Source of the DNA: Candidatus Nomurabacteria bacterium
GTDB lineage: Bacteria > Patescibacteriota > Minisyncoccia > Phycocordibacterales > UBA918
DNA: 64,000 nucleotides
Assembly (NCBI GenBank): GCA_023898525.1
Contig: CP060227.1
Location: forward strand, 645,836-709,835
Direction: 5' to 3'
In this document: in pieces, positions 5,456-51,939 of the stretch
How the letters are laid out: each line of letters begins with the position of its first letter
Position numbering within the stretch: position 1 is the first letter of the stretch
Position numbers and translations under genes: made by a program
The notes under the pieces: generated by a model
What the model was told of the DNA's origin: nothing
The model's database searches: none
What the model saw: only the letters and a program-made list of their open reading frames with translations

Positions 5456-5755
5456 ATGAAAGAATCTATACCAAACAATCAAGAAAATCTTACCCAAAAT
5501 CAGACCTTTAGGTACATTTGTGGTTTGGTAGAAAAAACCCCAACAGAAATGTTGCGAATTTTAGAGGAAAAAGATACTGATAACCAAATATTAAATTTAA
5601 TTACAAATTTAATGTCAGAATATGAAAAGAATGATCCTAATAGTCAACCTGTTAAGAATAAAGGGGGTATGGCTATTGCAGAGGCAATAAAAATGCGGAA
5701 AGAGACAGAAAACCAGTTTGTTGCGGTACTTGAATCTATACTACAGAAAGAGTAA
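5456..5755 (+). CDS. hypothetical protein
   Basis: 99-aa ORF in an otherwise ORF-free stretch; no recognisable motif. Confidence 0.4.
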   Translation: MKESIPNNQENLTQNQTFRYICGLVEKTPTEMLRILEEKDTDNQILNLITNLMSEYEKNDPNSQPVKNKGGMAIAEAIKMRKETENQFVAVLESILQKE

Positions 5756-20590: not shown

Positions 20591-20689
20591 ATGAAAATAT
20601 TTAGGTTTTTAAGAGGTGCCAAGACGCGTTGTCTCCGGCTCTGTGTGAAGATAGTTTACTTGATTTGATAGAAGATAGCAAAATTGTTT

Positions 20690-21246: not shown

Positions 21247-21299
21247 GACCCTATAAACCCCCAGCACAGCTGGGGTGTACATTTAAAGACAACGTCGTA

Positions 21300-22580: not shown

Positions 22581-22735
22581 GCGGGTGAGAAGAATCGGTC
22601 ACCTTCGCATCAATATTTTGTTCGACCAAGGGTCTCCAAAATATTGTGCTACGCGACCCCGTCGCTTCATACCGAAGCAAAAAGTGTTTTGCTTCAGGCT
22701 TCGCATGAAGCTCTTTTCGATTCTTCTCACCCGCA
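22581..22735. repeat. tRNA-Gly(TCC) 3'-end-associated structured element, copy 1
   Basis: Termini are a direct 17-nt copy (gcgggtgagaagaatcg, identical to 30607-30623 inside tRNA-Gly-TCC) and an inverted copy (cgattcttctcacccgca) of the tRNA 3' end; ~120-bp core shared with 43461-43608, with compensatory changes in three stems. Confidence 0.7.
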
Positions 22736-22786
22736 CAAATGGCCGGCCGAAACGCGAAAGCGTTTCGGCCGGCCATTTGTGCGGGC
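22730..22786. other. perfect GC-rich inverted repeat (26-bp arms)
   Basis: cccgcacaaatggccggccgaaacgc-gaaag-gcgtttcggccggccatttgtgcggg, starting inside the inverted tRNA-end fragment; lies just 3' of the minus-strand CYTH gene. Confidence 0.6.
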
Positions 22787-22849
22787 TATTCAACGATGTT
22801 CGAACTTTTTTAATGAAAATGACCACCCCAAATTGAGGTGGCCAAGGAA

Positions 22850-23455
22850 TTATTGGAATGGATTTTCCATTCCAAAAGTAATTAAAGGTGTTCCGTTATT
22901 GATTACATCTTTTGAAACACCGTATTTATCTTCATAGAGCTGGTCTACCGCGCAAAACTTTGCATCAGACCACTGAAACCCCAGTTTTTCAGACACTGTT
23001 CTCACAACATCCTCTGAAACACCCTCAACCTCCACGAATGAATCGAGAAATGGCCATGTGTCTATTGTCACTTCGACACCATCAAGCAACCAAAGCTCCC
23101 TCAAGGTTTCTTGATAAGCCTTTCGTACACACCCAAGCGACTCGAGCAAGAGTTCAGCGTTTTCGAATGAGTCCACTTGTACACAGACCTCTTTTTGGTC
23201 ATGTATAGCATCACCTCCTACTGATTTAACACTGACTGTGATTTTATCTGACTCGTCTCGTACACGAGCCCATCCATTTACCACCTGCGAGGTTGCTGGA
23301 AGATTGAAAACACTTCTCTTCTGCAAGAATTCACTCTTTTGAAGTTTCGCTCCAGCAGATGAAAGTTTTTCTCTGATTATCTCTTTATCCACCTTAACAA
23401 AGGTAGCTTCGTATTCGATTTGCATATTTTCTCCAACTGGTTTCAAATTCTCCAC
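22850..23455 (-). CDS. CYTH-domain protein (triphosphate tunnel metalloenzyme / class IV adenylyl cyclase-like)
   Basis: N-terminal MQIEYEATFVKV (ExE-type strand) and C-terminal acidic strand VTIDTWPFLDSFVEVEGVSED typical of CYTH; paralogous to the next gene. Confidence 0.6.
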   Translation of the reverse strand: MENLKPVGENMQIEYEATFVKVDKEIIREKLSSAGAKLQKSEFLQKRSVFNLPATSQVVNGWARVRDESDKITVSVKSVGGDAIHDQKEVCVQVDSFENAELLLESLGCVRKAYQETLRELWLLDGVEVTIDTWPFLDSFVEVEGVSEDVVRTVSEKLGFQWSDAKFCAVDQLYEDKYGVSKDVINNGTPLITFGMENPFQ

Positions 23456-23497
23456 AAAATTTATATCACAAATATTGTGTTTGTAAATATCTAGAAA

Positions 23498-24049
23498 TTA
23501 TTCGCACTTATCGAATGTAAAGTAACGGAAGTTCGACACATCGTAACCATAATTCTCAATAATTTTCTTTGGGTCTATAAAAAGCGCCTTGTTCCAATCT
23601 AATCCTAACTTTTCAGCAATATCTTTGACGTGTTGCTCTGTATCTCCCTCAATTTCAAGCATTGGTGGTATTTTTGGCCAAGAATCAATATCTAATACCA
23701 CGCCATCAAACTTAATCTTTCTCCTCTTTTTCTGCTGAACTCTGAAAGGTATAAGTTCCATTTTTTCTAAAAAGGCTTTGAGCTGCTCTGGCTTATCTAC
23801 TGTAAATTCTATTTCTTCTGCACCATCAATTGTATCTGCTGTGATTTGCTTGTGGGTAAAAATGTGTTTTCCATCATAGCTTCTAATACGTGCGTATCTT
23901 CCAGTAGGACTCCAAGTCAAATCCTTATCATAAAAAATTGTCTCCTCGAGCAAATGTTCACCCAAATCAACACCGCCAAGTGAAACAGCTTTTGCAACAA
24001 TCTCCTCGATGTCTATCTCAATAAATCTTGCTTCTATTTCAGTTACCAT
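23498..24049 (-). CDS. CYTH-domain protein (triphosphate tunnel metalloenzyme / class IV adenylyl cyclase-like)
   Basis: MVTEIEARFIEIDIEEI (ExExK/R motif), RYARIRSYDGKHIFTHK, VVLDIDSWPKIPPMLEIEGDTEQ, the CYTH signature strands. Confidence 0.75.
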   Translation of the reverse strand: MVTEIEARFIEIDIEEIVAKAVSLGGVDLGEHLLEETIFYDKDLTWSPTGRYARIRSYDGKHIFTHKQITADTIDGAEEIEFTVDKPEQLKAFLEKMELIPFRVQQKKRRKIKFDGVVLDIDSWPKIPPMLEIEGDTEQHVKDIAEKLGLDWNKALFIDPKKIIENYGYDVSNFRYFTFDKCE

Positions 24050-24057
24050 ATATCTCT

Positions 24058-25098
24058 TTAATTATCTCTTCTAATAACCATCATTTGTTTTGTGTCTCTA
24101 ATACCAGCATTTGTCATACTGTCCATAAATTGACTGTACTCTTTGCGTTCAACAGATTCTGAAGACTCAATCACCAAAGATTTTTGTTCGTCTGAAAGCG
24201 AAACCACCATTTCTATCATTTCTCCAAGACTACGATAAGTATAAATTTCAGACCCCTCCCTTCTTTGCCAAGCGTCAAAAATAAAAGATTCCTGACCTAG
24301 TTCTTGAATAGCAGACTCAAGTCTTGACTGCTCGTACGCACCAGACTCGATTTCACCTAAAATATGTTTGAGTGATTCTCCATATTTTTGAAGTAACGCA
24401 TAATCTAGAAAAGAAACGACGTGTCTCTGCATTTCTCGATGGTAGTGGACTGAAGCAACAGCCTCTGCTCCCTCTCCAATATTCCACATTTCATCAGATA
24501 CCTGATTTACCTTAAGAAATTTCTCTCTAAAGCCACTATCAAAATTTTTTAAGAAGTCTATTAGCGCCGGATTATACTCACCAGATAACAACTCTTGTGA
24601 ATTATCAGGCAGTCCAACATCACGATAAAAAATACGACCACCTTCAGTTAAGTGTGCCGTAAGCTTATCAAAAACTTCTCTCAAGTAGTCACTAACACTT
24701 ACAGTTCCTTCAAGAAAATCTTTATTGTATGAGATAACTTCGTGAATAACCGCAGAAACATTTATCGCAGAAAATGACCTTTCCGCAAACGGAAGCGCTG
24801 TTAAATTGGCAGCTACTCCAAACACTTTATCTTCTGGCTTATGAACACGTCTAACTAATGGTTCTAGAATATCAATTGCATACACTTCTAAATCAGGGTC
24901 TTTTATATCACGTTTTATTTTTTCAACCCCTTGACCACCACCAACACCAACCTCCATAACCCGAACCGTTCCGTCAATCCTGGGTAGCGACTCAGAATCT
25001 AATGCTTTAATGAGCATTCCAACCTTTTCATCAATACCGCCTTTAAGCTGTTCAAGATATTCCGTGTCACCTTTTTCGTTTTTTGAGAAAGTTTCCAT
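24058..25098 (-). CDS. class I SAM-dependent methyltransferase with large uncharacterised C-terminal domain
   Basis: Rossmann motif I VMEVGVGGGQGVEKI, acidic motif II (VYAIDI); start set to METFSK (25098), which follows a terminator hairpin; about 200 aa of unassigned C-terminal sequence. Confidence 0.7.
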   Translation of the reverse strand: METFSKNEKGDTEYLEQLKGGIDEKVGMLIKALDSESLPRIDGTVRVMEVGVGGGQGVEKIKRDIKDPDLEVYAIDILEPLVRRVHKPEDKVFGVAANLTALPFAERSFSAINVSAVIHEVISYNKDFLEGTVSVSDYLREVFDKLTAHLTEGGRIFYRDVGLPDNSQELLSGEYNPALIDFLKNFDSGFREKFLKVNQVSDEMWNIGEGAEAVASVHYHREMQRHVVSFLDYALLQKYGESLKHILGEIESGAYEQSRLESAIQELGQESFIFDAWQRREGSEIYTYRSLGEMIEMVVSLSDEQKSLVIESSESVERKEYSQFMDSMTNAGIRDTKQMMVIRRDN

Positions 25099-25127
25099 AA
25101 AAAAGCAGAGGGTACTAGCCCCTCTGC
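25099..25127 (-). terminator. intrinsic terminator between tmk-like gene and methyltransferase (minus strand)
   Basis: gcagagggtactagcccctctgc hairpin followed by a T-run on the minus strand. Confidence 0.55.
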
Positions 25128-25148
25128 CCAATCATACTATGCTCATCA

Positions 25149-25694
25149 CTAGAATGCCATTTTAACGACCATTTCTGTACATTGCTCAACTGAAAAACTC
25201 TTAGTGTCGAGCGAAACAAATGGCTGCTTTTCAAGAACCAAATTCCTGAACAAAGCTTGTGTTAAATCAAACTGTTTATCCAGAACTCTTTTGTCACCAG
25301 CATCCATACCTCGAGCAACTATCCGCTGGATTTGTGTGTCGGCGTCAGCCACCAAAAGTACAGTCAGGTCTGGTTTAAGAATGGTTGCAAAATCATCGTC
25401 AGTGACCGTTGCACCCATTACCTGATGATAAGTGAGTGTGCTAATCCAGTAGCGGTCACATATCACGTGTTTACCAGAACGCACTAACTCGGAAACCTCT
25501 TCTGAAGCATCCTGAATTGCATTCCGATAGAAAGCATAGTGTTCATCAGCACTAGCATCTCTATGCAACTTTTCGCTGTATTTTTGATACTTCTTCGGCG
25601 GCGTAGCATATGCAACCCCGCCAACCTTATCAGCGATACGTGTAACTAGCGTGCTTTTTCCTGTGCCATCAGCACCTTCAAGTACAAGGAACAT
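25149..25694 (-). CDS. tmk: thymidylate kinase-like P-loop kinase
   Basis: MFLVLEGADGTGKSTLV P-loop, DRYWISTLTYHQ (Tmk DRY/NMP-binding-like), lid-like RIVARGMDAGDKR; 181 aa, shorter than typical Tmk. Confidence 0.7.
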   Translation of the reverse strand: MFLVLEGADGTGKSTLVTRIADKVGGVAYATPPKKYQKYSEKLHRDASADEHYAFYRNAIQDASEEVSELVRSGKHVICDRYWISTLTYHQVMGATVTDDDFATILKPDLTVLLVADADTQIQRIVARGMDAGDKRVLDKQFDLTQALFRNLVLEKQPFVSLDTKSFSVEQCTEMVVKMAF

Positions 25695-25748
25695 TTTTCA
25701 CCTCCAGATTTAAGGAAAATTTGCTAGCGTAAAAATAGTACAATAATT

Positions 25749-26300
25749 TTAATATGTCAATGTTTGTTTCTCAATCTCAGAAAGGACAGTTGAGACGGAG
25801 ATTTTAAAATTGTCACCAACCTGAACCCTATATAAAGGTAGTTCAGCATCTTCAAACACATCATCTACAAGTTGGTCGCGTTCCATACGGCTAGGCTTGT
25901 TGTGTGAACTTCCATCCAGCTCAATTGCAATTAGTGGTGTCATCTTGTCGTTACAAATCAAAAAATCAACGTGTTTAGGTAGTATCTGGTTACGCCTCTG
26001 ATAGTAACCATTTCCGTTCACTACATCCACTATGTCAGCTATACGCATTTTAGGAAAAATAAATAAATTGTCTGGTAGGCCAGATAGTAAAGATTGAAAT
26101 AGAGCCATTTCACTATCGTTCATGACCACTGCTTTCTTTTTGTATTCACGTTGCTTTTCAATAACCACTTCTTTAACCACCTTTTGTTTAAAGGGCGAAA
26201 TTAACTTAAAGAATAGCCACTTAATGAACAAAGCACAAAGCAGCAAGAAAATGACCAGAAAGACCAGATTGAAAAGTAGTTGTAGTAAGTTAGTTTCCAT
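25749..26300 (-). CDS. membrane-anchored DUF2726-domain protein (restriction-endonuclease-like fold)
   Basis: N-terminal TM, then ALFQSLLSGLPDNLFIFPKMRIADIV...VDFLICNDKMTPLIAIELDGSSHNKPSRMERDQLVDDVFEDAELPLYR, matching the DUF2726 pattern (VDFvlcD...PllaIElDdssH...R). Confidence 0.6.
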   Translation of the reverse strand: METNLLQLLFNLVFLVIFLLLCALFIKWLFFKLISPFKQKVVKEVVIEKQREYKKKAVVMNDSEMALFQSLLSGLPDNLFIFPKMRIADIVDVVNGNGYYQRRNQILPKHVDFLICNDKMTPLIAIELDGSSHNKPSRMERDQLVDDVFEDAELPLYRVQVGDNFKISVSTVLSEIEKQTLTY

Positions 26301-26355
26301 ACCTGCTAACTATAGTATGTAGAACCAGAGGTAGCAATTACATACGCTGTGTGTA

Positions 26356-26562
26356 ATGAAACCACGGTTACTAGTTAAGTTTGGAAATACAATCCGTAAA
26401 CTACGAGAGGAGCGTGGTTTGTCCCAAGAACGGTTAGGTGAGATAGCCAAAGTTCACCGCACCTATGTAGGAATGATAGAGCGTGCAGAAAAGAACATCA
26501 CTTTCACAAACATTGAAAAATTTGCAAAAGCCCTTAAAGTAGACATCAAAGACTTATTTTAA
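26356..26562 (+). CDS. XRE-family helix-turn-helix transcriptional regulator
   Basis: 68 aa; NTIRKLREERGLSQERLGEIAKVHRTYVGMIERAEKN, canonical HTH_XRE; divergent from the DUF2726 gene. Confidence 0.8.
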   Translation: MKPRLLVKFGNTIRKLREERGLSQERLGEIAKVHRTYVGMIERAEKNITFTNIEKFAKALKVDIKDLF

Positions 26563-26564
26563 GG

Positions 26565-27320
26565 ATGGAAACTGCAAATATACTAGACAGAAAACTTGCT
26601 GCTATAGAAACCAGTCAGACTGACACTGACTGTTTTAAGCATATCCACGGCTACATAAAATACATACTCGAAACACCAGAGCTGAAAGCAATTCTTGATA
26701 CTGAAGAAAAAGATTTCTACAGAAAAGTTAAGTTCACAGATGACAATATCAAACTAGAACAAGCTAATTATTATCAAGCGTATTTTGTTGCATCGTACGT
26801 CCGTATTTATCTCCCAATCGAACACTACTGGAACAGCAACGAACAAGATGAAAAACAAGACCCTGTTGCACTGCTTTTAATTTGGGGGCCAAAACACCCA
26901 CGAACTATGAAATGGGTGAACGGTCATGATTTCTTTTCTAAAAGAGAACAGCTCAAACAACTTAAAAGCTATTGGCAGTGGTTTGATGGTCAGCGTGATT
27001 TTTACATCAGTGAAATCAAAAACCTACACCTTGCCTTGATTACAGAATTATCTAAACAGAAAGCATTGCCAACTGTGGCCGATGAAAAGCCAGATGTTTT
27101 TCAGATGAACTTAGAAACAGGCGACTTTAATCTTGGTGGTGTTACTGGAACGTTGAACATAACAACCCAAGAATTTAGAGTGATGGCAAAATTATATACA
27201 GCACCCAATCATCGTATGCCATATCTTGATTCAAAGAATATACCCCACCTTTCAAGGTGGGGCTATTTCGATACAATAGTAGGTAATGTCACCAATTATA
27301 AAAAAGTCACACAGTGCTAG
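26565..27320 (+). CDS. hypothetical protein; C-terminal ~25 aa encoded by the IS200 left end
   Basis: 251-aa ORF immediately after the XRE gene; its last residues (...NIPHLSRWGYFDTIVGNVTNYKKVTQC) come from IS200 copy B, suggesting IS insertion into the gene's 3' end. Confidence 0.5.
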   Translation: METANILDRKLAAIETSQTDTDCFKHIHGYIKYILETPELKAILDTEEKDFYRKVKFTDDNIKLEQANYYQAYFVASYVRIYLPIEHYWNSNEQDEKQDPVALLLIWGPKHPRTMKWVNGHDFFSKREQLKQLKSYWQWFDGQRDFYISEIKNLHLALITELSKQKALPTVADEKPDVFQMNLETGDFNLGGVTGTLNITTQEFRVMAKLYTAPNHRMPYLDSKNIPHLSRWGYFDTIVGNVTNYKKVTQC

Positions 27321-27785
27321 TGAACTAGTCTACCACTTTGTTTTCCCTGTGAAATACAGAAGAAAGATATTTACCGAAGAAAACGAACCAACCCTGAAGG
27401 AGTTAGCTTTGGAATTAGAAAAACGTTACGAACTCCACTTTTTAGAGATAGGTATAGATAAAGATCATGTTCACTTTCTTATCCAAGCAATTCCAAGCTA
27501 TGCTCCTTCGTATATTGCCAATACTGTTAAAGGAAACATTACTAAACGTTTTTTCTTGGCTCATCCAGAGGTAAAGATCTTTCTCTGGGGTGGTAACCTT
27601 TGGACTGATGGCTATTACGTTAATACTGTCGGTAACGCTAATATGTCTATTGTTAAAAACTACGTACAGAATCAAGGTTTACCTGAATACAAACAATTAC
27701 ACCACCAAACTCTCTCGTTGTTTTAACTTAAAACTCTCTTCATGTGCCACTGATACCCCGTGTCTTCAGGCCGGGGTAGTTCATT
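27229..27785 (+). mobile_element. IS200/IS605-family insertion sequence, copy B (identical to 20690-21246)
   Basis: 557-bp exact duplicate including both terminal hairpins. Confidence 0.8.
27286..27726 (+). CDS. tnpA: IS200/IS605 family transposase TnpA
   Basis: Identical to 20747-21187. Confidence 0.85.
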   Translation: MSPIIKKSHSASELVYHFVFPVKYRRKIFTEENEPTLKELALELEKRYELHFLEIGIDKDHVHFLIQAIPSYAPSYIANTVKGNITKRFFLAHPEVKIFLWGGNLWTDGYYVNTVGNANMSIVKNYVQNQGLPEYKQLHHQTLSLF

Positions 27786-28149
27786 GGTTAGATGCCTGAA
27801 AACAAATGCCACAGAGGCTTCAAAAACAGATAAAAGAATGCTTGGTACAGTGATTCGTAACATTAAAAGACAGCTTGGTATTCTTCCAGAAGATAAACGA
27901 GTGAACGAGGACATCTTCCATAATGAAATGAAGTTTGGCTATCGGCTTGAAATAAAAGGTTAATTTCTTTTCCATAACATTTCCATATCTTTTCCGTACC
28001 CTTTCGAGGGTCTTTTTTATATCGTGCTGGCATGAGTTTCAGCCAAGGATTAGTAGAACAGTACCAGCGATACATGGAACGTCGTTGTGGGGTTTGTATT
28101 ACTCACGAACAGGCGCAGCTACACCTTGCTTCCTTAGCACGACTCTATA

Positions 28150-28262
28150 CAGCAATTTCTTTTTCGCAAGACTCTGGCGGTGGTCGCGTGCGGCTTTCGC
28201 CTCACCCTCACCCCGAGGCGGGGTGAGGCGAAAGGCCGCGTCGCGGCCTTTCTGCGCAGCAG
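28150..28262. promoter_or_regulatory. GC-rich nested inverted repeats upstream of Rep: candidate rolling-circle origin
   Basis: cctcaccctcaccccgaggcggggtgagg and ggccgcgtcgcggcc hairpins in an otherwise AT-rich locus, 40-150 nt upstream of the HUH Rep start. Confidence 0.35.
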
Positions 28263-28303
28263 AAAGTGACTTGATTTTATATACACATAGTTCGACATCA
28301 TTT

Positions 28304-29146
28304 ATGAGTAGACCACGCACCAGTCATTACAAAATTGTTATTTCAGGACACATTGTTGAGGCAATGCAGTATGCCAAAGCAGTTGGCTACAGTCTTGAGT
28401 CAAGTAAAAAGCAGGCACCGTATCGCAAACGACGAGCTTTAGCTGAGCAAGAGATAACGGCTAGTTCACTCAGTCGGACAAAGAACAGGCTAATTCGATT
28501 GGTGAACGCTAATTGTTTTATGTGGACTGATATAGACGGACAGATAATTAAACCGCAGTTTCTGACCTACACTATCCACGAAAATATTAAGACAGTTGAA
28601 CAAGCTAACCCGCTTTTCACCAACTACATCAAACGACTGAATTACCATACCTACGGCACTAAAGCATCGGTAATTAAATACGTGGTTGTGCCTGAGTTTC
28701 AAAAACGTGGGGCAGTTCACTATCATGCAGTGTTCTTTAACCTGCCTATGATTAACTCGAGGAGAGAATATAAAACGGGTGAGTTTGCAAAAGTTTGGGA
28801 ACATGGATATATCAAAAAACGAAACATAAGCAAAGTACCAAATGTTGGTTTGTATATGACTAAGTATATGACCAAAGATGCCATGGATAGACGACTAGTT
28901 GGCAGAAAGAAATATTTTTCTAGTCGAGGCTTGTTAAAACCAGAGGTAATTACCTATGAACATTTAGCGGGGGATATGATGGACTACTTGTCAGAACTAA
29001 AACCAATGCACGCTTATATCACGTCACCTAATGATGAACGTCCGTTTGTTGAGAACCCTACTTTTTGCGCGACATACAATCTATCCACTGAACAGTTGCA
29101 TGATTTACGAAATTTCTATACCCTCGATAGTGCTAACTTAAGGTAG
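28304..29146 (+). CDS. HUH-superfamily rolling-circle replication initiator (Rep)
   Basis: HUH motif GAVHYHAVFFN and Tyr motif GLYMTKYMTKD (YxxKY). Start set to MSRPRT (28304); the upstream extension of the ORF spans the GC palindromes. Confidence 0.7.
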   Translation: MSRPRTSHYKIVISGHIVEAMQYAKAVGYSLESSKKQAPYRKRRALAEQEITASSLSRTKNRLIRLVNANCFMWTDIDGQIIKPQFLTYTIHENIKTVEQANPLFTNYIKRLNYHTYGTKASVIKYVVVPEFQKRGAVHYHAVFFNLPMINSRREYKTGEFAKVWEHGYIKKRNISKVPNVGLYMTKYMTKDAMDRRLVGRKKYFSSRGLLKPEVITYEHLAGDMMDYLSELKPMHAYITSPNDERPFVENPTFCATYNLSTEQLHDLRNFYTLDSANLR

Positions 29147-29149
29147 CGT

Positions 29150-30614
29150 ATGAAATACATCCTTTATTGTCGAAAATCACAAGAGTCAGAGGATAGACAA
29201 GTGCAGTCACTTGAGGCGCAAGAGCGTGAACTGAATGACTTTGCTAAACGTCATAGTTTGGACATTGTTGGTGTGTATCATGAGAGTCGGTCTGCTAAGA
29301 CGGTCGGTCGTCCAGTATTCAATGAGGTGATTAAGAAAATACAATCAGGCAAGGCTGATGGTTTGCTTTGTTGGAAACTAGACCGCTTAGCGCGTAATTT
29401 CATAGATGGTGGGCTTGTCATTGACCTATTGCAGCACTCAGTCATTAAAAGTATTCAAACCCCTGCTAAAGAATATCTACCAACTGACCCTGTATATCTG
29501 ATGGTGTTTGAGCTTGGCGTGGCTAATCAATTTTCTCGCGACCTGTCTGAAAACGTAAAGCGTGGCAATCGTGAGAAAATTCGCAATGGTGGCTGGCCTG
29601 GATTAGCACCTTTTGGTTATCTAAACGATAAGGCAGAGAAAACGCTTTATGTTGACCCCGACCGTGGGCCATACGTACAGCAGATGTATGAACTCTACGC
29701 CACTGGTTTGTATAGTCTTAAAGAGCTGTCCAATGAGCTTTATGAGCGAGGATTACGCACCAAGCAAGGCAACAAAGTCCATTGCGGTACCATCAGACAT
29801 ATTTTGCGTAACCCAATGTATCACGGCGTGATTCGCTACCGTGGCAGCTATTACCCAGCTAACTTTACTAGCATTACCACCAAAGACCTTGTACGACAAA
29901 AGCATGAACGTCATGGACGGTAGTGCAAAACCGCGGAAGCAAAAGCACCTCTTTCCCTTAACTGGATTGTTTACCTGTGGTGTCTGCGGATATGCCGTGA
30001 CCGCAGAGAAACAAAAAGGTTACACGTACTACCACTGCACTAACGGCAAGGGAATTTGTGACCAAAAGAAACTATTCATTCGTGAGGAAAAACTTGATGA
30101 GCAACTGGCACCAATCTTTGATGATGTTGCATTTGACGAGGAACTAATTGAAATGATGTATCAGGCGGCACTTGAGCAAATGGAACATGACGACCAGTTC
30201 AACACCGCAGCTATTGAGAAACTAGAAAAGGAATTGGCCGCAATCAAACTAAAAGATAATCGCTTACTTGATGCTTTCTTAGCTGAAAATATTGAAAAGG
30301 ATATTTACGATGCAAAACAGGCAGAAATAAAGCATGAACGGATTGCACTAGAGAAACAATTAGCTGGAATGCGCCAAAATCACCAAAACCCCTACGCAAC
30401 TATCGAACGGGCAAAAGAGTTGTTTTTGTTTAGTAATAGAGCCAAATCTGAGTATGCGAATGCCGTTCCTGAGCGAAAACAAGAAATCGCTTATGAGTTA
30501 CTATCGAACGCTTTACTGAAAGACCGAAAAATGGCTCAACCACAACTTAAAAGCCCTTACGATATGCTCGCAAGGACTCCTAAGAATGCTGATTTTGCAA
30601 TTATGTGCGGGTGA
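29150..30614 (+). pseudogene. large serine recombinase with apparent frameshift near 29860-29900; 3' end overlaps tRNA-Gly
   Basis: 29150-29923 encodes the resolvase catalytic domain (YCRKSQESEDRQVQSLEAQ...LDRLARN) and recombinase domain; the zinc-ribbon/coiled-coil part (HLFPLTGLFTCGVCGY..., LFDKV-like TLYDKSMNVMDGSAKPRK) is in a different frame (29841-30614). The TGA stop at 30612-30614 lies inside the tRNA-Gly 3' end. Confidence 0.6.
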
Positions 30615-30676
30615 GAAGAATCGAACTCCCGACTACTGCTTGGAAGGCAGTCGTTTTACCACTAAACTACACCCGC
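30606..30676 (-). tRNA. tRNA-Gly (anticodon TCC)
   Basis: Reverse complement GCGGGTG-TA-GTTT-AGTGGTA-AAAC-G-ACTGC-CTTCCAA-GCAGT-AGTC-GGGAG-TTCGATT-CTTCT-CACCCGC-A folds as a 71-nt cloverleaf with U33 and anticodon UCC; no encoded CCA. Confidence 0.8.
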
Positions 30677-34570: not shown

Positions 34571-34680
34571 GTGATTACGGACTGATGAAAAATTTTTGTA
34601 AGAAAATTTTTCATCAGTCAACAATTCCTCTCTACCAGAAACAAAACCGGCCCTTTTTGGGCCGGTTTTGTTTCTGGTTG
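34571..34680. repeat. palindrome + terminator-like hairpin module, copy A
   Basis: ttacg-gactgatgaaaaattttt-gtaa-gaaaatttttcatcagtc-aacaa (34579-34618), then ccagaaacaaaaccggccc-ttttt-gggccggttttgtttctgg (34634-34678). Confidence 0.7.
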
Positions 34681-35130
34681 TTCTAAATATATTTTTATAT
34701 ATTTGAACCGACAAACCGACCCTGATCGCTGACAATCCACCCGAGCACGAGAACAATCACTCGCATGGTGCGCTTGAATGAGTAAATGTTTGTCGAATTA
34801 CTCTGCATAAGTTTTAGTATATACCCATAAAGATGAGTGTCAAATATTTTTCCACTGCTTGATTATAAATATAACCGCACATGATCTGGTCGTGTGCGGT
34901 TATTGATTTGATAATATGGGAGTGCCTATTTGTCTCCATGGGTAGTCTCTCGTTGGATTATTTTTTGACGCGTTTCAATAAACTTTGCCATTATTTTTGC
35001 CCTCCTTAATCCTTCGTCAATAGGCTCTGTTGTGTCAGTTGGCAATTGGTTTTGAAATTGGTTAGTATCTTTTTTGTCCATTATCTTCCCCTTAAGTAGG
35101 ATTATATTAAAAGAACTATATTCAGCCGTT

Positions 35131-35240
35131 TGATTACGGACTGATGAAAAATTTTCTTAAGAAAATTTTTCATCAGTCAATAAATTGTGAAGTAGAACAA
35201 AAATCCGGCCAGTGGCCGGATTTTTGTTCTACTTCGCATT
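35131..35240. repeat. palindrome + terminator-like hairpin module, copy B
   Basis: ttacg-gactgatgaaaaattttcttaagaaaatttttcatcagtc-aataa (35139-35178), then gaagtagaacaaaaatccggcc-agtg-gccggatttttgttctacttc (35190-35237). Confidence 0.7.
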
Positions 35241-35392
35241 TTCTTATTTCATTAAAAACAAAACCGACCAGCTCATAAAGCCAATAATAATGCTAATAAT
35301 TGAAATAATTATTTGCGGTATAAAGCTATATGAAATGGTCGCTGTTTTCGCCCTCATCATTACAGTATATTTGGTATGTCTATTAGTGTCAA

Positions 35393-36475
35393 ATATATGT
35401 ACGATCTCACCACCTTTGAGACTCTATCTCATAATGTTCTCTATAATACTCCATGGGCGACAAAAGACCCAGTCCTTCATGCGGTCTCTCATGGTTATAC
35501 CAATACAACCATTCATTCAGTGAATCATTGAAGTCAGGAATACTATCTCGAAGCAGGGATCGGTGATAAATAATGTGTTCTTCTTGAACGGTACGATTGA
35601 ATCGCTCTATATAGGCATTCATCTTAGGACAACGTGGATAAGTGTGATAATGGTTGATGTTAAGAGTTAAACAAGCTTCGTGGAAGTATTTAGCGAATTC
35701 TGAACCATTATCAGTCTGTATCTCATCTATACTAAAAGGGGTATAGTGTATAAGTTGTTTTAGAAAGTCTCGAGCACTATTTGAAGAATGACTGGTATAA
35801 GTACGAGCGTAAGCAAACCGTCTTTCTATGTCTATGGCGGTGAGTATGTACCGTTTAGTGCCATCTATGTGTCTCACGATAGTGTCTATCTCCAAACCTT
35901 GTTTTTGTGGTCTTCTTTGTTTTTTAACCTTGGTTTTTCTTTGTTCTTTGTGTGTACCACTCTTAGCGTACCAAGAGAGCTTAACTGGATTCGGTAGTCT
36001 ACCTAGTTCTTTAAGATCACTGATACAGCGATTAACATAGGAAACTGACACCTTGAATCCTTCCTTCTTCAATAGCGGTACCAGCTTTTTCCCACCAATC
36101 CGTGGTCGCTTAGTACGCCAGTTGATAATAGCTTGCTCTAGTGGTGGTGATATCTGTCTCACTCTTCGTTTCTTAGGAGCAGTACTCTTGGGGTCTAGGG
36201 CTTGGATATTACCATTACTATCATTTAGTTCTTTTTGCCATCTAAATAAAGTTGGTCTAGATACGCCAAAAGCATCTTTGGTGGTATTAGTACCATGTTT
36301 TTGCCAAAACGTGAGTATTTTAACTCTTCTTTCGACCTCCTGTTTGTTTTTCATTGTCTGCCACTTTAGAGCACTATCAGCCGCTTTGGCAAACCCTCTG
36401 GTGTTCCTTAAAATGTTATGTATTCTCATTACTCCTTATTTAAGGAGTCTCATATGTATGTGAGATTATTCAATA
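35393..36475 (-). mobile_element. IS481-family insertion sequence
   Basis: Single 340-aa DDE transposase flanked by imperfect terminal inverted repeats (atctcac...tgagactc motifs at both ends); boundaries approximate. Confidence 0.6.
35407..36429 (-). CDS. IS481-family DDE transposase (integrase core domain)
   Basis: N-terminal HTH, rve core with D(LTAIDIERRF), D(QTDNGSEF), E(YIERFNRTVQEE) spacing. Confidence 0.8.
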   Translation of the reverse strand: MRIHNILRNTRGFAKAADSALKWQTMKNKQEVERRVKILTFWQKHGTNTTKDAFGVSRPTLFRWQKELNDSNGNIQALDPKSTAPKKRRVRQISPPLEQAIINWRTKRPRIGGKKLVPLLKKEGFKVSVSYVNRCISDLKELGRLPNPVKLSWYAKSGTHKEQRKTKVKKQRRPQKQGLEIDTIVRHIDGTKRYILTAIDIERRFAYARTYTSHSSNSARDFLKQLIHYTPFSIDEIQTDNGSEFAKYFHEACLTLNINHYHTYPRCPKMNAYIERFNRTVQEEHIIYHRSLLRDSIPDFNDSLNEWLYWYNHERPHEGLGLLSPMEYYREHYEIESQRW

Positions 36476-41140: not shown

Positions 41141-41266
41141 CGTCTAATATAATGCCCTATTTAGAGGTATTTGCAAAATAGGTATCTGAATAAAATCTAG
41201 TTTAGAGAACATAAACACTCGCTTTTTTTTAAAATGAGTGTTATTATCATCGCACAAAAAAATAAT

Positions 41267-41302
41267 CGGGGTGTAGCATAGTGGTAGTGTACGCGGTTTG
41301 GG
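41267..41302 (+). repeat. 36-nt exact copy of tRNA-Pro 5' half (positions 1-36, through the anticodon)
   Basis: cggggtgtagcatagtggtagtgtacgcggtttggg, identical to 41407-41442; a further 11-nt copy (cggggtgtaagc) sits in a hairpin at 41337-41366. Confidence 0.8.
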
Positions 41303-41406
41303 GTTCTTTTTTAATTTCATAGCCTTTTTAGTTAAGTCGGGGTGTAAGCAAAAGCTTTCACCCCCGAGCTCGAAACTTAAATGCAGTTTGCGCTTAATTT
41401 CTCGCT

Positions 41407-41477
41407 CGGGGTGTAGCATAGTGGTAGTGTACGCGGTTTGGGACCGTGCGGCCCGGGTTCGATTCCCGGCTCCCCGA
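41407..41477 (+). tRNA. tRNA-Pro (anticodon TGG)
   Basis: CGGGGTG-TA-GCAT-AGTGGTA-GTGT-A-CGCGG-TTTGGGA-CCGTG-CGGC-CCGGG-TTCGATT-CCCGG-CTCCCCG-A; one U-U mismatch in the acceptor stem; anticodon UGG. Confidence 0.75.
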
Positions 41478-42455: not shown

Positions 42456-43196
42456 TTAATAAAAATACTTTTCTCCGTTTCTAAAAATATCAAACTCACT
42501 CTTAACATTGTGCTTAATCTCGTTGTATGGACGTAATTCATTATCAGTCCATTTCTTTTTCATGGCCCAACAACAATAATCTGCTATTTGGCAATTAACA
42601 TCTGACTTAGTCGAATGAAAATACATGTAGGGAACTAAACCAAAATGTGATTTTATATATTGCTTGATAGACTTAGTGACAAATTCTCTTTTTTTATTAG
42701 GTAACGCTTGATCTAATACTACCACGACCTTTTTTATACCTAAAGATGCTCGAATTTTTAAATATCGGTGACAGACATACTTCAATAAAGTTTCACATAA
42801 TTGTTTATAAAATTTTTCGTGAACCTGTTCAGTTTTAATCTTTAAAAATCCAGTTTTACTACTTTCGGCCATAACTTCTTCATATAAAGTAAAATTGGCT
42901 TTTCTTTTCTCTGCTATAACACTATCTATTTCATAGTCTGGAAGATCTTTAATTTTTTCGTAAAACTTGTTGCGTACCACTTGTGCATCAACAGTGGCGT
43001 GAAAATATTCAATATTATAACCTTCACAAAGAAGTTCATAACGTGCAGAAAGAGGTAAGTCTCGTCTATTTAAAGGATGAATTGTACTAGCTGCGGTCAA
43101 TATAAAAAACTTACTTCCTTTGTTTGAAAAAGTAAAATCACCTGATTCATCAATAAATATATAAAGTATATTATCTTTTTTCTCTTGTTCTGCCAT
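42456..43196 (-). CDS. DUF3800-domain protein
   Basis: N-terminal NILYIFIDESGDF, the DUF3800 hallmark; start set to MAEQEKK (43196). Confidence 0.55.
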   Translation of the reverse strand: MAEQEKKDNILYIFIDESGDFTFSNKGSKFFILTAASTIHPLNRRDLPLSARYELLCEGYNIEYFHATVDAQVVRNKFYEKIKDLPDYEIDSVIAEKRKANFTLYEEVMAESSKTGFLKIKTEQVHEKFYKQLCETLLKYVCHRYLKIRASLGIKKVVVVLDQALPNKKREFVTKSIKQYIKSHFGLVPYMYFHSTKSDVNCQIADYCCWAMKKKWTDNELRPYNEIKHNVKSEFDIFRNGEKYFY

Positions 43197-43460
43197 AAAG
43201 ATTAAAACATTATAGCAGTTTAGTAGCACGCCCCTTAGAACGAAACTTATACAGGGAGAATCGTCCCGGAATAGCGGCTATTTTGTTTCGTTTCACTCAC
43301 AAAATAGACTCGCTTTCCTGGACGGCTTCTCCTCGTTTTGTTCGCTAAGAAAGCTCACAAAACATCGTCCGAAGCTTCGATTCTCCACGTAAAGCATGAA
43401 AATTTTGCTCTGGCCGTACGAACAAAAATGGCGCCAATTGTATCGATGTTTTTATAGAAA

Positions 43461-43608
43461 GAGGGAGAATCGGTCACCTTCGCATCAATATTTTGTTCGT
43501 TCTGCGAACTCCAAAATATTGTGCTACGCGACCTCGTCGTTCCGTTCTGATTCTTCGTACCTCAGAATCAGGCTTCGCACGGAACTCTTTTCGATTCTCC
43601 CTGGCCGC
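43461..43608. repeat. tRNA-Gly(GCC) 3'-end-associated structured element, copy 2
   Basis: Termini agggagaatcg (direct) and cgattctccctggccgc (inverted) match the adjacent tRNA-Gly-GCC 3' end; conserved core with covarying stems relative to 22581-22735. Confidence 0.7.
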
Positions 43609-43620
43609 TACCAACGGCAA

Positions 43621-43650
43621 AGGCCCAGAAAGTATCCACTTTCTGGGCCT
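43621..43650 (-). terminator. hairpin terminator immediately 3' of tRNA-Gly(GCC)
   Basis: aggcccagaaagt-atcc-actttctgggcct. Confidence 0.55.
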
Positions 43651-43659
43651 GCCGATTGG

Positions 43660-43730
43660 TGCGGCCAGGGAGAATCGAACTCCCGACTAATCCTTGGCAA
43701 GGACTCATTATACCACTTAACCATGGCCGC
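43660..43730 (-). tRNA. tRNA-Gly (anticodon GCC)
   Basis: Reverse complement GCGGCCA-TG-GTTA-AGTGGTA-TAAT-G-AGTCC-TTGCCAA-GGATT-AGTC-GGGAG-TTCGATT-CTCCC-TGGCCGC-A; anticodon GCC. Confidence 0.85.
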
Positions 43731-43739
43731 ATTTTATAT

Positions 43740-44420
43740 TTATTTTTGTAGGTCTTTTGAAGCTAACTCAAGCCAATGCATAAGCTTTTTCTTCAAAAGC
43801 GTACTGCCGATTATAGTATTACCAACGCCAAAATGCAACGCCTTTTTACTACCACCGTTAATAAATTGGTTTTTGTAAAATTGACTGACTGATAACTTAA
43901 TCTTTCTACTCCAATGTTTCATCGCTTTTACCTCATCCATATCAGGGTAGAGAAGTAACCAAAATCTAAACGATGATTTTTCTACTCCCAAAAACTCCGT
44001 AGCGAATTTTATAAAAATACTATGCAGTTCAGTTTGGCCAGTGGTAAGGCGGATAAGGTTCTTGTGTTTCATATCACCCTCACACCTATAGAGCATTAGG
44101 CCAGAGACAAACAACGGGGAATTAAGGTAATGCTTATACTCAGTCTCTGCCAAACGCAAAATCTCCTTATATTGAGCCGTTCTTTCGGCATTTCGTGCTT
44201 TGTTTACCAGCTTTATTCTTCCTACATTATCTTTATACGCTCTATCTAGATTAGTCTTGGCTATACGTTTAGAAAACCCTTCATCTTTAAGCCAATTTGA
44301 GACCGTGCCACGCGAAACATCACAGATCTTAGCAATTTCGGTGTAAGTAAAACCACGTTTTCTAAAAGCTATAGCTTGTTCATATGCTTCTTTTTTATAA
44401 GTTACGCGTGAATTTACCAT
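43740..44420 (-). CDS. hypothetical protein with N-terminal helix-turn-helix
   Basis: GFTYTEIAKICDVSRGTVSNWLKDEG resembles a sigma-70 region-4/Sin-type HTH; the rest unassigned. Confidence 0.45.
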   Translation of the reverse strand: MVNSRVTYKKEAYEQAIAFRKRGFTYTEIAKICDVSRGTVSNWLKDEGFSKRIAKTNLDRAYKDNVGRIKLVNKARNAERTAQYKEILRLAETEYKHYLNSPLFVSGLMLYRCEGDMKHKNLIRLTTGQTELHSIFIKFATEFLGVEKSSFRFWLLLYPDMDEVKAMKHWSRKIKLSVSQFYKNQFINGGSKKALHFGVGNTIIGSTLLKKKLMHWLELASKDLQK

Positions 44421-51571: not shown

Positions 51572-51806
51572 GTAAAAACTTCCTTTTCGTATAATCAGGA
51601 ATTATTTGTGGTCACGAATCACTAAGTATATTTGTTCGTCTACGACTCCAAATCTACTAAGTGTTCTCGACCCGCCAGGACTCGCTCCTTACAGGAGCAG
51701 TACCCCAATTGGCTGGATTGGTTCGCTCCACTCCCAATCCAGCTCAATCGGGCTTCGAGTCGTGCTACGGCTTTTTCTTCCACTATCGTTTCAGAAAAAC
51801 CCTGCA

Positions 51807-51880
51807 CCTGGCGGGTGCACAGAAAATGTTAAAGACCAGCGTTTTAGCTGGTCTTTAACATTTTCTGTGCACCCGCCAGG
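51807..51880. repeat. perfect 34-bp-arm inverted repeat whose right arm is the tRNA-Arg 3' end plus 3' trailer
   Basis: cctggcgggtgcacagaaaatgttaaagaccagc-gtttta-gctggtctttaacattttctgtgcacccgccagg; direct copy of the tRNA 3' end (cccgccaggactcg) again at 51671-51684. Confidence 0.8.
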
Positions 51881-51939
51881 ACTCGAACCCAGAACGACTG
51901 ATCCGAAGTCAGTTGTGATATCCATTTCACCACGGGTGC
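51868..51939 (-). tRNA. tRNA-Arg (anticodon TCG)
   Basis: Reverse complement GCACCCG-TG-GTGA-AATGGATA-TCAC-A-ACTGA-CTTCGGA-TCAGT-CGTT-CTGGG-TTCGAGT-CCTGG-CGGGTGC-A; anticodon UCG. Confidence 0.8.

Follow-up and report, generated by a model that had tools for sequence, protein, structure and literature searches.

A folded, protein-less module behind tRNA-Gly(GCC) of a Candidatus Nomurabacteria bacterium: tRNA companion or mobile cassette?

Candidate-phyla-radiation bacteria have genomes of about 1 Mb and are thought to be poor in mobile elements. In a 64-kb stretch of a Candidatus Nomurabacteria genome (in the following, the window), the tRNA-Gly(GCC) gene is followed by a folded module, here called module A, that is framed by an inverted and a direct copy of the tRNA's own 3' end. 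An earlier note on this DNA had taken the layout as the native neighbourhood of tRNA-Gly genes in this genome. The question is thus whether module A is an inherited companion of the tRNA or a unit that moves. On balance, we consider module A to be probably a protein-less mobile cassette of about 190-210 bp that inserts at the 3' parts of tRNA genes (at least four or five families in Patescibacteria).

Along the minus strand, the order is tRNA-Gly(GCC), a hairpin, the inverted copy of the tRNA end (A'), the folded core and the direct copy (A) (Table 1). This order, as given in the earlier note, is borne out by ARAGORN, Rfam, the sequence and an inverted-repeat search, and the arrangement is uninterrupted here. 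A' is 2 bases longer than the limits given before, and base 43461 mismatches the tRNA, i.e., the direct copy stops one base earlier. Its length of 11 nt compares with 19-20 nt at most other loci. Arm complementarity extends through the trailer (30-nt arms, 87% in the inverted-repeat search), such that tRNA 3' end, trailer, hairpin and A' form a single long palindrome (43590-43679) with the hairpin at its centre. No gene was found between the tRNA and the distal copy, and a scan of 43150-43850 revealed neither a promoter-like site nor a U-tract terminator between the tRNA and module A. The label of a terminator, which had been attached to the hairpin, is not supported at this locus: only TTT follows the stem, where an intrinsic terminator has a GC-rich stem and a U-tract, and no terminator-like site came up anywhere in the scanned stretch. 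T-runs do occur at some other loci (L005, L002).

Table 1. Positions of the cassette parts, tRNA genes and island in the window. Strand and basis are given where available.
Feature	Position	Strand	Basis
tRNA-Gly(GCC), CCA encoded	43657..43730	-	ARAGORN; Rfam tRNA 65 bits; sequence
Segment A (copied source), 3' part of tRNA-Gly(GCC), T-loop to CCA	43657-43679	-	
Hairpin aggcccagaaagt/actttctgggcct, 13-bp arms, 4-nt loop	43621..43650	-	sequence
A' gcggccagggagaatcgaa, 19-nt exact Watson-Crick complement of tRNA positions 54-72	43590..43608	-	sequence; inverted-repeat search
P2 arm of module A, variable, at least 3 unrelated versions among copies	43539..43585	-	fold; alignments
P3 arm of module A, GGUCGCGUAGCAC...GAUGCGAAGGUGACC	43472..43533	-	fold; covariation; covariance model R1
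Distal direct copy A, cgattctccct, from T-loop C56, 11 nt exact	43462..43472	-	sequence
Cassette B, second cassette after tRNA-Gly(GCC)	43252..43419	-	sequence; fold z-score -5.5
Cassette B split A', first part gtacggccag	43419-43410	-	
Cassette B hairpin inserted within A'	43409-43387	-	
Cassette B split A', second part ggagaatcgaa	43386-43376	-	
Cassette B direct copy gattctccctg, 11 nt	43262-43252	-	
Module A copy 2	22581..22737	-	exact core matches; inverted repeats; fold; R1 138 bits
Copy 2 A', matches tRNA-Gly(TCC), 22 nt exact	22716-22737	-	
Copy 2 direct copy, matches tRNA-Gly(TCC)	22581-22597	-	
Hairpin preceding copy 2	22730-22785	-	
tRNA-Gly(TCC)	30605-30676		
Island between tRNA-Gly(TCC) and its cassette, 7.8 kb	22786..30604	-	8-bp cccgcaca repeats at bounds
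tRNA-Arg(TCG) locus: tRNA end, hairpin, A', cassette C, direct copy, D-type hairpin	51610..51939	-	
tRNA-Arg(TCG) A' in two parts	51807-51820 + 51754-51761	-	inverted-repeat search
tRNA-Arg(TCG) locus direct copy after cassette C	51671-51684	-	

In the predicted fold, A' provides the 5' strand and the distal copy the 3' strand of a closing helix P1, which corresponds to the acceptor and T-stem helix of the local tRNA. The P3 arm is almost invariant among copies, with an invariant G.U pair and a covarying tip. A structure alignment has 94.7% of its cells paired and compensatory changes at 15 pairs, values reached by 0 of 500 shuffles. Module A shows fold z-scores of -6.3 and -10.8, and its fold under DNA parameters is very stable as well (z-score -12.8). 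The sense strand folds better (-62.5 vs -55 kcal/mol); together with the invariant G.U pair, these predicted energies favour a single strand that is read in the direction of the tRNA. P1 covaries with the local tRNA among module A copies, which is no independent evidence for an RNA helix since both arms derive from the same tRNA sequence. A' also has an alternative partner, the tRNA 3' end: in the predicted minimum-free-energy fold of the full co-transcript it pairs with the tRNA itself (long hairpin) and not with the distal copy, and such pairing would destroy the cloverleaf unless folding is kinetically controlled. Using Rfam 15, only tRNA passes the gathering threshold in the window, nothing credible appears in 43100-43800 at E<=10, and at E<=0.01 no family covers any cassette type in eight other loci.

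The recurrence of the core within the window is not due to chance, i.e., two core sequences (a 25- and a 34-mer) recur exactly in copy 2, with 0 matches in 100 shuffles. The earlier note had proposed the tRNA-Gly(GCC) locus as the comparison for this displaced copy, and it serves as such: copy 2 is module A keyed to tRNA-Gly(TCC), from which an island separates it. The island carries a split large serine recombinase, a HUH Rep and an IS200 copy; its junction repeats fall between A and the hairpin. At its tRNA-Gly(TCC), Parcubacteria OLB19 (L001) combines the same hairpin with module A and lacks the island. Given its own 8-bp repeats and this absence from OLB19, the island is a later, separate insertion. 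The T-stem of tRNA-Gly(TCC) (gggag/cttct) contains two G.U pairs, but A' reads agaag; likewise, L001 shows ggggg vs agagg in A'. A' therefore departs from the 5' strands of the tRNA and is the Watson-Crick complement of A. The palindrome at this tRNA continues into the genomic trailer (gcacaaatgg) and does not match the mature CCA end, i.e., it was copied from DNA or a primary transcript and not from mature tRNA.

We compared the tRNA-Gly(GCC) locus among relatives, defining an orthologous locus by an HTH gene (homologue of the protein at 43740-44420), tRNA-Gly(GCC) and a UPF0102 gene. Six relatives with these flanking genes are empty and show a plain hairpin only after the tRNA (L024/25, L028, L030/31, L032, L041/42, L043/44), with tRNA-Pro and CorA further on where the locus reaches that far. 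Another six genomes, the window's included, are filled, each with one of four cassette types; L022, L026, L040 and L045 hold different cassettes or the window's two in reverse order (A-B in the window vs B-A in L026). At tRNA-Arg(TCG), three genomes are filled and four empty. The module is thus no native neighbour of tRNA-Gly; its absence from relatives with conserved synteny is the very outcome that the earlier note had named as speaking against its suggestion. An exclusive tie to tRNA-Gly fails as well, since module A also follows tRNAs for Val, Met, Arg and probably Ala and extends to distant lineages, among them Saccharibacteria. The HTH proteins of the compared genomes are only 70-80% identical to the window's, which leaves the exact insertion junctions unreadable, and no excised form or strain-level polymorphism was seen among the loci compared.

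Pattern scans and the covariance model R1 place module A only in Patescibacteria MAGs and metagenome contigs. R1 matches 22 copies. Of 14 metagenome matches, 4 (L007, L010, L011, L017) fall within GC-rich coding DNA and were left out as chance. Wherever the upstream flank is on the contig, module A sits just 3' of a tRNA on the same strand, and its arms match this local tRNA, starting in the T-loop and ending 1-2 nt beyond the discriminator. Direct repeats start at C56 (T54 in cassette C of L001) and end 1-2 nt past the discriminator; in L002, L003, L005, L006, L012, L013 and L015 distal copy and local tRNA are identical over 19-20 nt. The tRNAs themselves are left intact, scoring 57-73 bits. 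L008 and L015 carry units in tandem (period of 208 nt), L003 has an orphan one 1.5 kb away from its tRNA, and truncated or decayed copies persist in L009 and L026. L005 (Gly-TCC) and L006 (Gly-GCC) share near-identical trailer, hairpin, A' and core and differ in their local A copies.

Module A is not the only such unit. A second cassette (B), missed by the earlier note, occupies the same intergenic region; its core, located between the second part of A' and the direct copy, differs from module A. In L026, cassette B adjoins the tRNA directly and module A comes second. Cassette C is also present in L001 and L032. Altogether, cassette-type flanks are found at 3/4 tRNAs of the window. In several cassette types and some module A copies, a small extra hairpin splits A' at the acceptor/T-stem boundary or no more than 3 nt from it. 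Whether the long hairpin belongs to the cassette or to the tRNA is a point on which the evidence conflicts: it accompanies the core in L005 and L006 as well as in the window and L026, while at tRNA-Arg an empty site (L024) has a hairpin similar to the tRNA-proximal one of filled sites.

The reading of module A as a mobile cassette, on balance the probable one, brings these observations together. The unit comprises trailer and hairpin, A' and the conserved folded core, bracketed by direct copies (A) of the local tRNA; units stack in arrays in both orders, some orthologous sites have them and others do not, and copies are more decayed the further they lie from the tRNA. There is no ORF inside the ~200 bp units, and neither a recombinase nor a transposase nor a reverse transcriptase accompanies the cassettes, whose neighbours are unrelated housekeeping genes; the enzyme that moves them is thus a postulate. 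Encoded elsewhere, it would insert the unit at A, either by site-specific recombination in the T-loop, as tRNA-targeting integrases do, or by a staggered cut that duplicates A. Homogenisation of the inverted repeats may later keep A' complementary to the chosen tRNA end. The unit would be transcribed by read-through from the tRNA promoter. In the resulting RNA, A' and the distal A are expected to form a 12-17-bp helix with one strand identical to the tRNA's acceptor/T-stem stack and the core in place of the T-loop. With an end like that of a tRNA, the structured RNA could be trimmed and stabilised by RNase P, RNase Z and the CCA-adding enzyme; its job may be carried by the invariant P3 arm.

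More tentatively, the cassettes could represent an undescribed class of mobile elements in Patescibacteria. It would consist of gene-less cassettes of ~200 nt, each a structured RNA whose closing helix imitates the acceptor/T-stem of the adjoining tRNA; they would home in on tRNA genes and form integron-like arrays, with targeting and copying of the tRNA end guided by A' (as RNA or hairpin) and not by an element-borne sequence-specific integrase. In a literature search on miniature elements linked to tRNAs and on structured RNAs in Patescibacteria, no match was found. With small non-coding cassettes at most tRNA genes of a single window and orthologous loci that differ among relatives, the cassettes form a dynamic and so far unannotated layer of these genomes. 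The pairing of features is unusual, i.e., tRNA-site-specific insertion is combined with a conserved protein-free folded RNA that ends in a copy of the local tRNA. Should this RNA be processed like a tRNA, non-coding RNAs would here have a natural expression system guided by tRNAs; insertion guided by the inverted copy, if confirmed, would be a new targeting principle. Repeated tRNA 3' ends and long palindromes will mislead tRNA-based island finders, assembly and annotation in these genomes.

Known systems share parts of this layout. A tRNA-like end recalls that of non-coding RNAs (tmRNA domain, YrlA, tRNA minihelix), where the strand of the closing helix is likewise a real acceptor and T-stem followed by a discriminator, and some cassettes branch where nt 8-48 would leave the helix. 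In the cassettes, however, the whole core replaces the T-loop, the mimic copies whichever tRNA adjoins, and no Rfam match to tmRNA or Y-RNA-like families was obtained. Casposons and CRISPR-spacer acquisition (Cas1 family) also duplicate the target segment on both sides, casposons insert at tRNA 3' ends, and the cassette arrays, too, seem to grow at the anchor-proximal end. Here, no Cas1 was seen, the unit spans 200 bp and not kilobases, and the duplication measures 19-20 nt vs 14-15 bp in casposons.

An alternative that we rate as rather unlikely takes the cassettes as single-stranded-DNA elements that use a folded hairpin for integration, in the manner of CTXphi or integron attC sites. Folded in the single strand, the A-hairpin-A' segment would imitate the double-stranded tRNA 3' end, one strand would be exchanged with the tRNA gene by a host tyrosine recombinase, and replication would fix the product; the core would then serve as an origin or recognition structure and be no RNA gene. 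By our derivation, the layout A, loop, A', rest of the element, A is exactly the product of one strand exchange between hairpin and duplex. The very stable DNA-parameter fold agrees with this, and DNA hairpins tolerate G.T pairs, too. Moreover, the long hairpins of window copy 1, L001 and L014 share an additional A that stays unpaired at the discriminator position and recalls the extrahelical bases of attC, and the hairpin loop is flipped between the window and L032. Against it, an element bearing its own A/A' could not switch tRNAs without producing a chimeric tRNA, but a single lineage is found behind Gly-TCC and behind Gly-GCC, in each case with the A that fits the local tRNA. The A' stem ends at T54, such that the 5' half of the T-arm, which a T-loop recombinase would need, is missing from the hairpin. 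The cassettes carry no Rep or recombinase gene, and nothing similar occurs in the viral contigs, phages and plasmids searched (see below).

Both model systems match in part only. Like attC arrays, the cassettes are short promoter-less units stacked in variable order at a fixed site, each with an imperfect palindrome that folds in single strand and with most decay furthest from the anchor. Unlike them, the anchor is a tRNA gene and not attI, the inter-unit repeat is a tRNA 3' end, there is no ORF cargo, and no IntI was found in the window or loci. The attC boxes R''/R' (RYYYAAC ... GTTRRRY) are absent as such, i.e., the T-loop GTTCGAT agrees with GTTRRRY at 6/7 positions only, in an order reversed relative to the palindrome. 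With the hairpin-attP of CTXphi/IMEX, module A shares a direct repeat at both ends and an inverted copy beside one junction; it differs in its target (a tRNA gene, not dif), in having no phage genes, and in a hairpin sequence that varies by locus.

It is also quite improbable that the units are deletion remnants of larger integrated elements, i.e., prophages or islands at tRNA genes of which the att-proximal end survives, encoding a phage or island ncRNA. Tyrosine-integrase elements classically leave direct repeats that span T-loop and tRNA 3' end as their scar (reportedly Williams 2002). Tandem integrations accumulate at tRNA genes, and copy 2 sits at the far end of an 8-kb recombinase-bearing island, which is however the later, separate insertion described above. 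More than 20 loci show the same sharp unit limits and are never joined to integrase or phage genes, and units of different families alternate at a spacing of about 200 bp, both of which argues against deletion remnants. Furthermore, the core has no true match among 2.9 million viral contigs of IMG/VR (seven 15-mer matches are chance) and none among 50,697 phage records of INPHARED or 72,556 plasmids of PLSDB; an origin as phage or plasmid is rejected on the same grounds. P4-type T-loop-class integrative elements and CIME-like derivatives do resemble the cassettes: they insert 3' of an intact tRNA, with a direct repeat from the T-loop to just past the tRNA 3' end (19-20 nt in the cassettes), accrete in tandem at one tRNA and are present or absent at orthologous loci. 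Direct repeats of the tRNA end as well as occupied and empty sites are found here, an internal integrase is not, and none of the 30 window ORFs scanned is a tyrosine recombinase. The cassette differs in spanning only ~200 bp without integrase or any other gene, in its extra inverted copy, in a conserved content that is a folded non-coding core, and in the occurrence of one core at no fewer than five different tRNAs.

The view that started this study, a native and vertically inherited tRNA companion, is already refuted as stated by the empty orthologous sites. In this reading, the module would be a cis-acting processing or regulatory RNA whose A' switches between the tRNA 3' end and the distal copy. 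The A/A'/A design does permit two exclusive pairings, the stretch from tRNA to module has no promoter or terminator, and such flanks are common among the window's tRNAs. Nevertheless, the gaps and unrelated or reversed cassettes at orthologous loci, the spread of one core over at least five tRNAs in distant lineages and the persistence of truncated copies make it very improbable. A regulatory side effect of the cassette on its host tRNA is possible.

We likewise give little credence to a retroelement-type unit that spreads by reverse transcription, with A' as tRNA primer-binding site or an A'/A helix like retron a1/a2: A' complements the last 19-22 nt of the tRNA, i.e., the length of a retroviral primer-binding site, and the terminal inverted repeats with short arm and long hairpin resemble retron msr-msd (P1, P2 and P3 topology, by resemblance only), but no reverse transcriptase is near any copy (no RT domain near either window copy or in L001-L005), the tRNA-Gly(TCC) palindrome runs into the trailer and not the CCA, for which reasons the retron or primer-binding-site identity is rejected, and no group II introns are reported for the phylum (PMC13011429), which counts against it, too.

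Further identities were tried and rejected. An internally deleted tRNA pseudogene is at odds with A', which complements A and does not copy the tRNA 5' strands with their G.U pairs. Despite three genes for Y1 transposases in the window, an IS200/IS605 derivative is rejected, as the cassette shows no relation to the ends and hairpins of the 561-bp IS. A MITE or non-autonomous transposon would have terminal inverted repeats that stay constant, short target duplications of fixed length and an autonomous partner; here, the inverted ends (A'/A) vary with the neighbouring tRNA, and no partner was found. Bridge-RNA (IS110) or omega-RNA (TnpB/IscB) guides were set aside, since A' and A complement each other and not adjacent half-sites, and no such gene is nearby. 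Group I introns in Patescibacteria tRNAs lie at position 35/36 and are much larger than the cassettes (PMC13011429), which rejects this identity as well. Finally, DUF3800-associated motifs are a set of structured RNAs that are not related to one another and whose function is unknown (Weinberg et al. 2017, PMC5737381). A DUF3800-linked RNA was rejected because the gene is found at the window locus only, is absent from the genes checked on both sides of module A in L001-L005, and no Rfam DUF3800 model matches. The likeness to these motifs lies in the DUF3800 gene of the window (42456-43229), which directly follows cassette B.

The minus-strand sequence bears out the order described in the earlier note for the tRNA-Gly(GCC) locus, i.e., tRNA, hairpin, inverted copy (A') of the tRNA's 3' part, core and direct copy (A) of that part. 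We refer to this gene-less cassette of about 200 nt as module A. In an inverted-repeat search (repeat I7), the trailer is also complementary, with arms of 30 nt (87%). Since the arms extend across the trailer, a single palindrome of about 90 nt reaches from the tRNA 3' end to the inverted copy, with the trailer and hairpin inside it. The label of the hairpin as a terminator is unsupported at this locus: it is followed by TTT alone, and a consensus scan of 43150-43850 returned 0 terminator-like and 0 promoter-like sites. Hairpins of this type may belong either to the cassette or to the tRNA.

Coordinates of the features discussed (window positions)
Feature	Position	Strand	Remark
tRNA-Gly(GCC)	43730-43657	minus	CCA encoded
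Hairpin 3' of tRNA-Gly(GCC)	43650-43621	minus	
A' (gcggccagggagaatcgaa)	43608-43590	minus	reverse complement, without mismatch, of tRNA positions T54-72 (19 nt)
Folded core of module A	between A' and distal A	minus	about 120 nt
Distal A (cgattctccct)	43472-43462	minus	direct copy, 11 nt, from T-loop C56 on
HTH_23 domain protein	43740-44420	minus	upstream of tRNA-Gly(GCC)
DUF3800 gene	42456-43229	minus	directly 3' of cassette B
Second copy of core	22581-22737		exact
tRNA-Gly(TCC)	30605-30676		no encoded CCA
Island	22786-30604		7.8 kb, between tRNA-Gly(TCC) and its hairpin + module A; 8-bp cccgcaca repeats at bounds
Large serine recombinase of island	29150-29923, 29841-30614		two overlapping ORFs; stop codon within tRNA-Gly(TCC) 3' end
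HUH Rep of island	28085-29146		ORF2/G2P type
IS200-like elements	20687-21247, 27226-27786		561 bp, identical; hairpin ends, Y1 transposase
Third Y1 transposase gene	21356-21808		different from the other two
tRNA-Arg(TCG) array	51610-51939	minus	cassette C + D-type hairpin
tRNA-Pro(TGG) 5' half, both occurrences	41266-41302, 41406-41442	plus	exact, 37 nt
DDE (rve-type) transposase gene and adjoining repeat cluster	34575-35258, 35407-36429		long inverted/direct repeats, 45-nt arms

The stretch from A' to A is predicted to fold on its own into a three-way junction (z-scores of -6.3 and -10.8 for the two window copies), with A' paired to A in P1, a variable arm P2 and a long arm P3 (GGUCGCGUAGCAC...GAUGCGAAGGUGACC). 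Within a covariance-model alignment of 19 distinct copies, standard pairs fill 94.7% of the cells and 15/37 pairs show changes on both sides. None of 500 shuffles matches these values, and slid controls drop to 33-45% paired. P3 is nearly invariant, including an invariant G.U pair, while its tip covaries with four pair types; P2 occurs in at least three unrelated versions. The antisense fold is weaker (-55 vs. -62.5 kcal/mol). The core is constrained as a single-stranded fold, on the strand of the tRNA. Along one strand, P1 has the sequence of the T-stem and acceptor 3' strands. It therefore rebuilds the 12-bp acceptor/T-stem stack and adds 5 bp formed by T-loop bases, the core taking the position of the T-loop. 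Because both arms copy one tRNA, covariation within P1 does not independently prove that this helix forms in RNA.

Together, a scan across 185,579 species genomes, a scan of metagenome contigs and the covariance model of module A (R1) yielded 22 copies. The pattern scans demanded two conserved P3 strings and missed the copies at tRNA-Arg of locus L015, such that the family is wider than sampled. All copies stem from Patescibacteria MAGs (Parcubacteria, Nomurabacteria, Paceibacteria, Saccharibacteria; the window genome is itself a Candidatus Nomurabacteria MAG) or from unassigned metagenome contigs. Beyond the window, the module is found at Gly-TCC (L001, L005), Gly-GCC (L006), Met-CAT (L002), Val-TAC (L003, L004, L009, L012, L013), Arg-TCT (L015) and a tRNA with an Ala-type anticodon loop (L019). 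Wherever the contig includes the upstream flank, it lies directly 3' of a same-strand tRNA, either singly or within an array beginning at that tRNA; no common flanking protein genes were found among the neighbours compared. At each locus, GGTGAC is followed by the 3' part of the local tRNA, a distal A of usually 19-20 nt that reaches from C56 to 1-2 nt beyond the discriminator. A' follows the local tRNA unevenly: its match is perfect over 16-22 nt in both window copies, L001, L012 and L019, and just 8-12 nt long in L002, L005, L006 and L013. At 4982-5260 (+) of L009, the direct copies 3' of tRNA-Val retain the acceptor strand atcgcgc; the functional tRNA now reads atcgccc with a compensating 5' strand. 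These distal copies may record an earlier form of the tRNA end.

The HTH_23 gene is a useful synteny anchor. Its protein has 781 homologues at E<=0.001, of which the best 120 are 62-80% identical, and it adjoins tRNA-Gly(GCC) in every locus checked; the order HTH, tRNA-Gly(GCC), UPF0102, tRNA-Pro, CorA is kept in loci of sufficient length. Among the window genome and eleven relatives (HTH proteins 70-80% identical to the window's; insertion junctions approximate), six loci are empty and six filled, with four cassette types. The empty ones (L024/25, L028, L030/31, L032, L041/42, L043/44) show a plain hairpin and no A'/A copies. The filled ones carry module A and then cassette B (window), the reverse order with a truncated module A (L026), module A and another unit (L006), cassette E (L022, L040) or a C-related cassette (L045). 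Likewise, tRNA-Arg(TCG) carries cassettes in the window, L032 and L022 and none in L024, L028, L031 and L006. The unit has been inserted at the 3' part of a tRNA, and copies of that part bracket it. Of the earlier interpretation, the layout and the comparison with a displaced copy hold. The module is not native to tRNA-Gly, since six orthologous loci are empty with their flanking genes kept, an outcome named beforehand as a refutation; nor is it specific for tRNA-Gly.

The displaced copy at tRNA-Gly(TCC) is confirmed. The core recurs exactly (0 matches in 100 shuffles), and its arms match tRNA-Gly(TCC) exactly over 22 and 17 nt (inverted repeat I21). In the Parcubacteria genome OLB19 (L001), the same tRNA is followed by this hairpin and by module A without the island, which makes the island a separate, later element. 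Besides the recombinase and Rep genes, the island carries an IS200 copy, a thymidylate-kinase-like gene (by sequence judgement only), two CYTH genes and a methyltransferase; it may be an integrated single-stranded-DNA replicon. All three Y1 transposase genes lie within 7 kb.

As an overall picture, we lean towards a gene-less unit that is inserted at A by an enzyme acting in trans, read through from the tRNA and processed into an RNA. The enzyme would be encoded elsewhere. T-loop-class tRNA integrases have the same repeat limits as the cassettes, from the T-loop to just beyond the tRNA 3' end. In L005 and L006, trailer, hairpin, A' and core are near-identical at two different tRNAs, each direct copy being locally exact. 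With one lineage at both Gly-TCC and Gly-GCC and locally correct repeats, target duplication or crossover in the shared T-loop fits better than a tRNA end borne by the element. A' may assist target recognition and might be homogenised afterwards against the selected tRNA end, which would account for both perfect and decayed versions. Given that neither a promoter nor a U-tract lies in between, transcription from the tRNA promoter probably reads through into the unit. P1 could then act as a minihelix-like substrate for RNase P, RNase Z and the CCA-adding enzyme, and its processing would give a stable RNA with its function seated in P3. No Rfam family matches any cassette type, no similar DNA was found in IMG/VR, phage or plasmid collections, and literature searches returned no description of such tRNA-end cassettes. 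Among tRNA-targeted integrative elements they are best classed as a new variant, gene-less and with an undescribed structured RNA; their targeting mode may be new in kind, with reasonable though less than even odds.

Among the alternatives, a single-stranded-DNA element with a hairpin attachment site is unlikely. In its favour, the hairpin loop at tRNA-Arg(TCG) is flipped, reading taaaac in the window vs. its reverse complement gtttta in L032. An IS200 derivative was rejected, as the IS200 ends in the window are unrelated to the cassette. Remnants of larger islands are quite improbable; an island does adjoin module A at tRNA-Gly(TCC), and OLB19 has the module without it. Given the empty orthologous sites, a native regulatory partner of the tRNA is very improbable. 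A DUF3800-linked RNA was rejected as well. Eleven unrelated RNA motifs without explanation are known next to DUF3800 genes (PMC5737381); none of these is matched by cassette B, and the DUF3800 association fails at the other module A loci checked.

A retroelement, with A' as a primer-binding site, is scarcely credible: at tRNA-Gly(TCC) the palindrome runs into the genomic trailer gcacaaatgg and not into CCA, which makes DNA or the primary transcript the template instead of mature tRNA. No reverse transcriptase, integrase or transposase linked to the cassettes was found among the neighbouring genes checked. The T-stem of this tRNA (gggag/cttct) contains two G.U pairs, while A' reads agaag; as in L001, A' is the Watson-Crick complement of A and not a copy of the tRNA 5' strands. 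This points to inverted duplication of A and rules out an internally deleted tRNA gene. In several cassette types (B in the window and L026, C in L001, E in L022, A in L004 and L015, and the orphan of L003), a small extra hairpin splits A' at, or at most 3 nt from, the acceptor/T-stem boundary. At this boundary, nucleotides 8-48 depart from the helix in a real tRNA. The extra hairpin weakly supports selection for an RNA shaped like a tRNA; alternatively, it could just break an over-long DNA palindrome.

Cassette units accumulate and turn over. Whole units stand in tandem in L008 and L015 (period 208 nt), the array of L004 reads A, D, A, and an orphan unit in L003 lies 1.5 kb away from its tRNA-Val. 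In the window and L026, the unit nearest the tRNA is intact and the distal one more decayed. Cassette-type flanks are present on 3/4 window tRNAs. At tRNA-Arg(TCG), a perfect palindrome with 34-nt arms takes in the last 14 nt of the tRNA, followed by cassette C (shared with L001 and L032; 14-nt direct copy) and then a D-type hairpin (GGGTCGAGAAC...GATTCGTGACCAC) common to L004, L009, L019 and L022. Within different cassettes (L003 ~5657-5712, L014 103-157, L022 252-305, L040 ~2221-2266), a mini-insert of about 55 nt (CACCACAAG...AGGTC) that forms a small hairpin is found at varying positions. It splits ggggtaatcg|aaaccgcc in cassette E of L040 and is absent from E in L022, and thus resembles a mobile insertion inside the cassettes, smaller again than these.

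Elsewhere in the window, the DDE transposase gene and its repeat cluster probably mark an insertion sequence whose neighbours are degenerate. The 5' half of tRNA-Pro(TGG), up to the anticodon, is copied 103 nt upstream of the gene and may be the scar of an anticodon-loop insertion in which the 5' half, rather than the 3' end, was duplicated.
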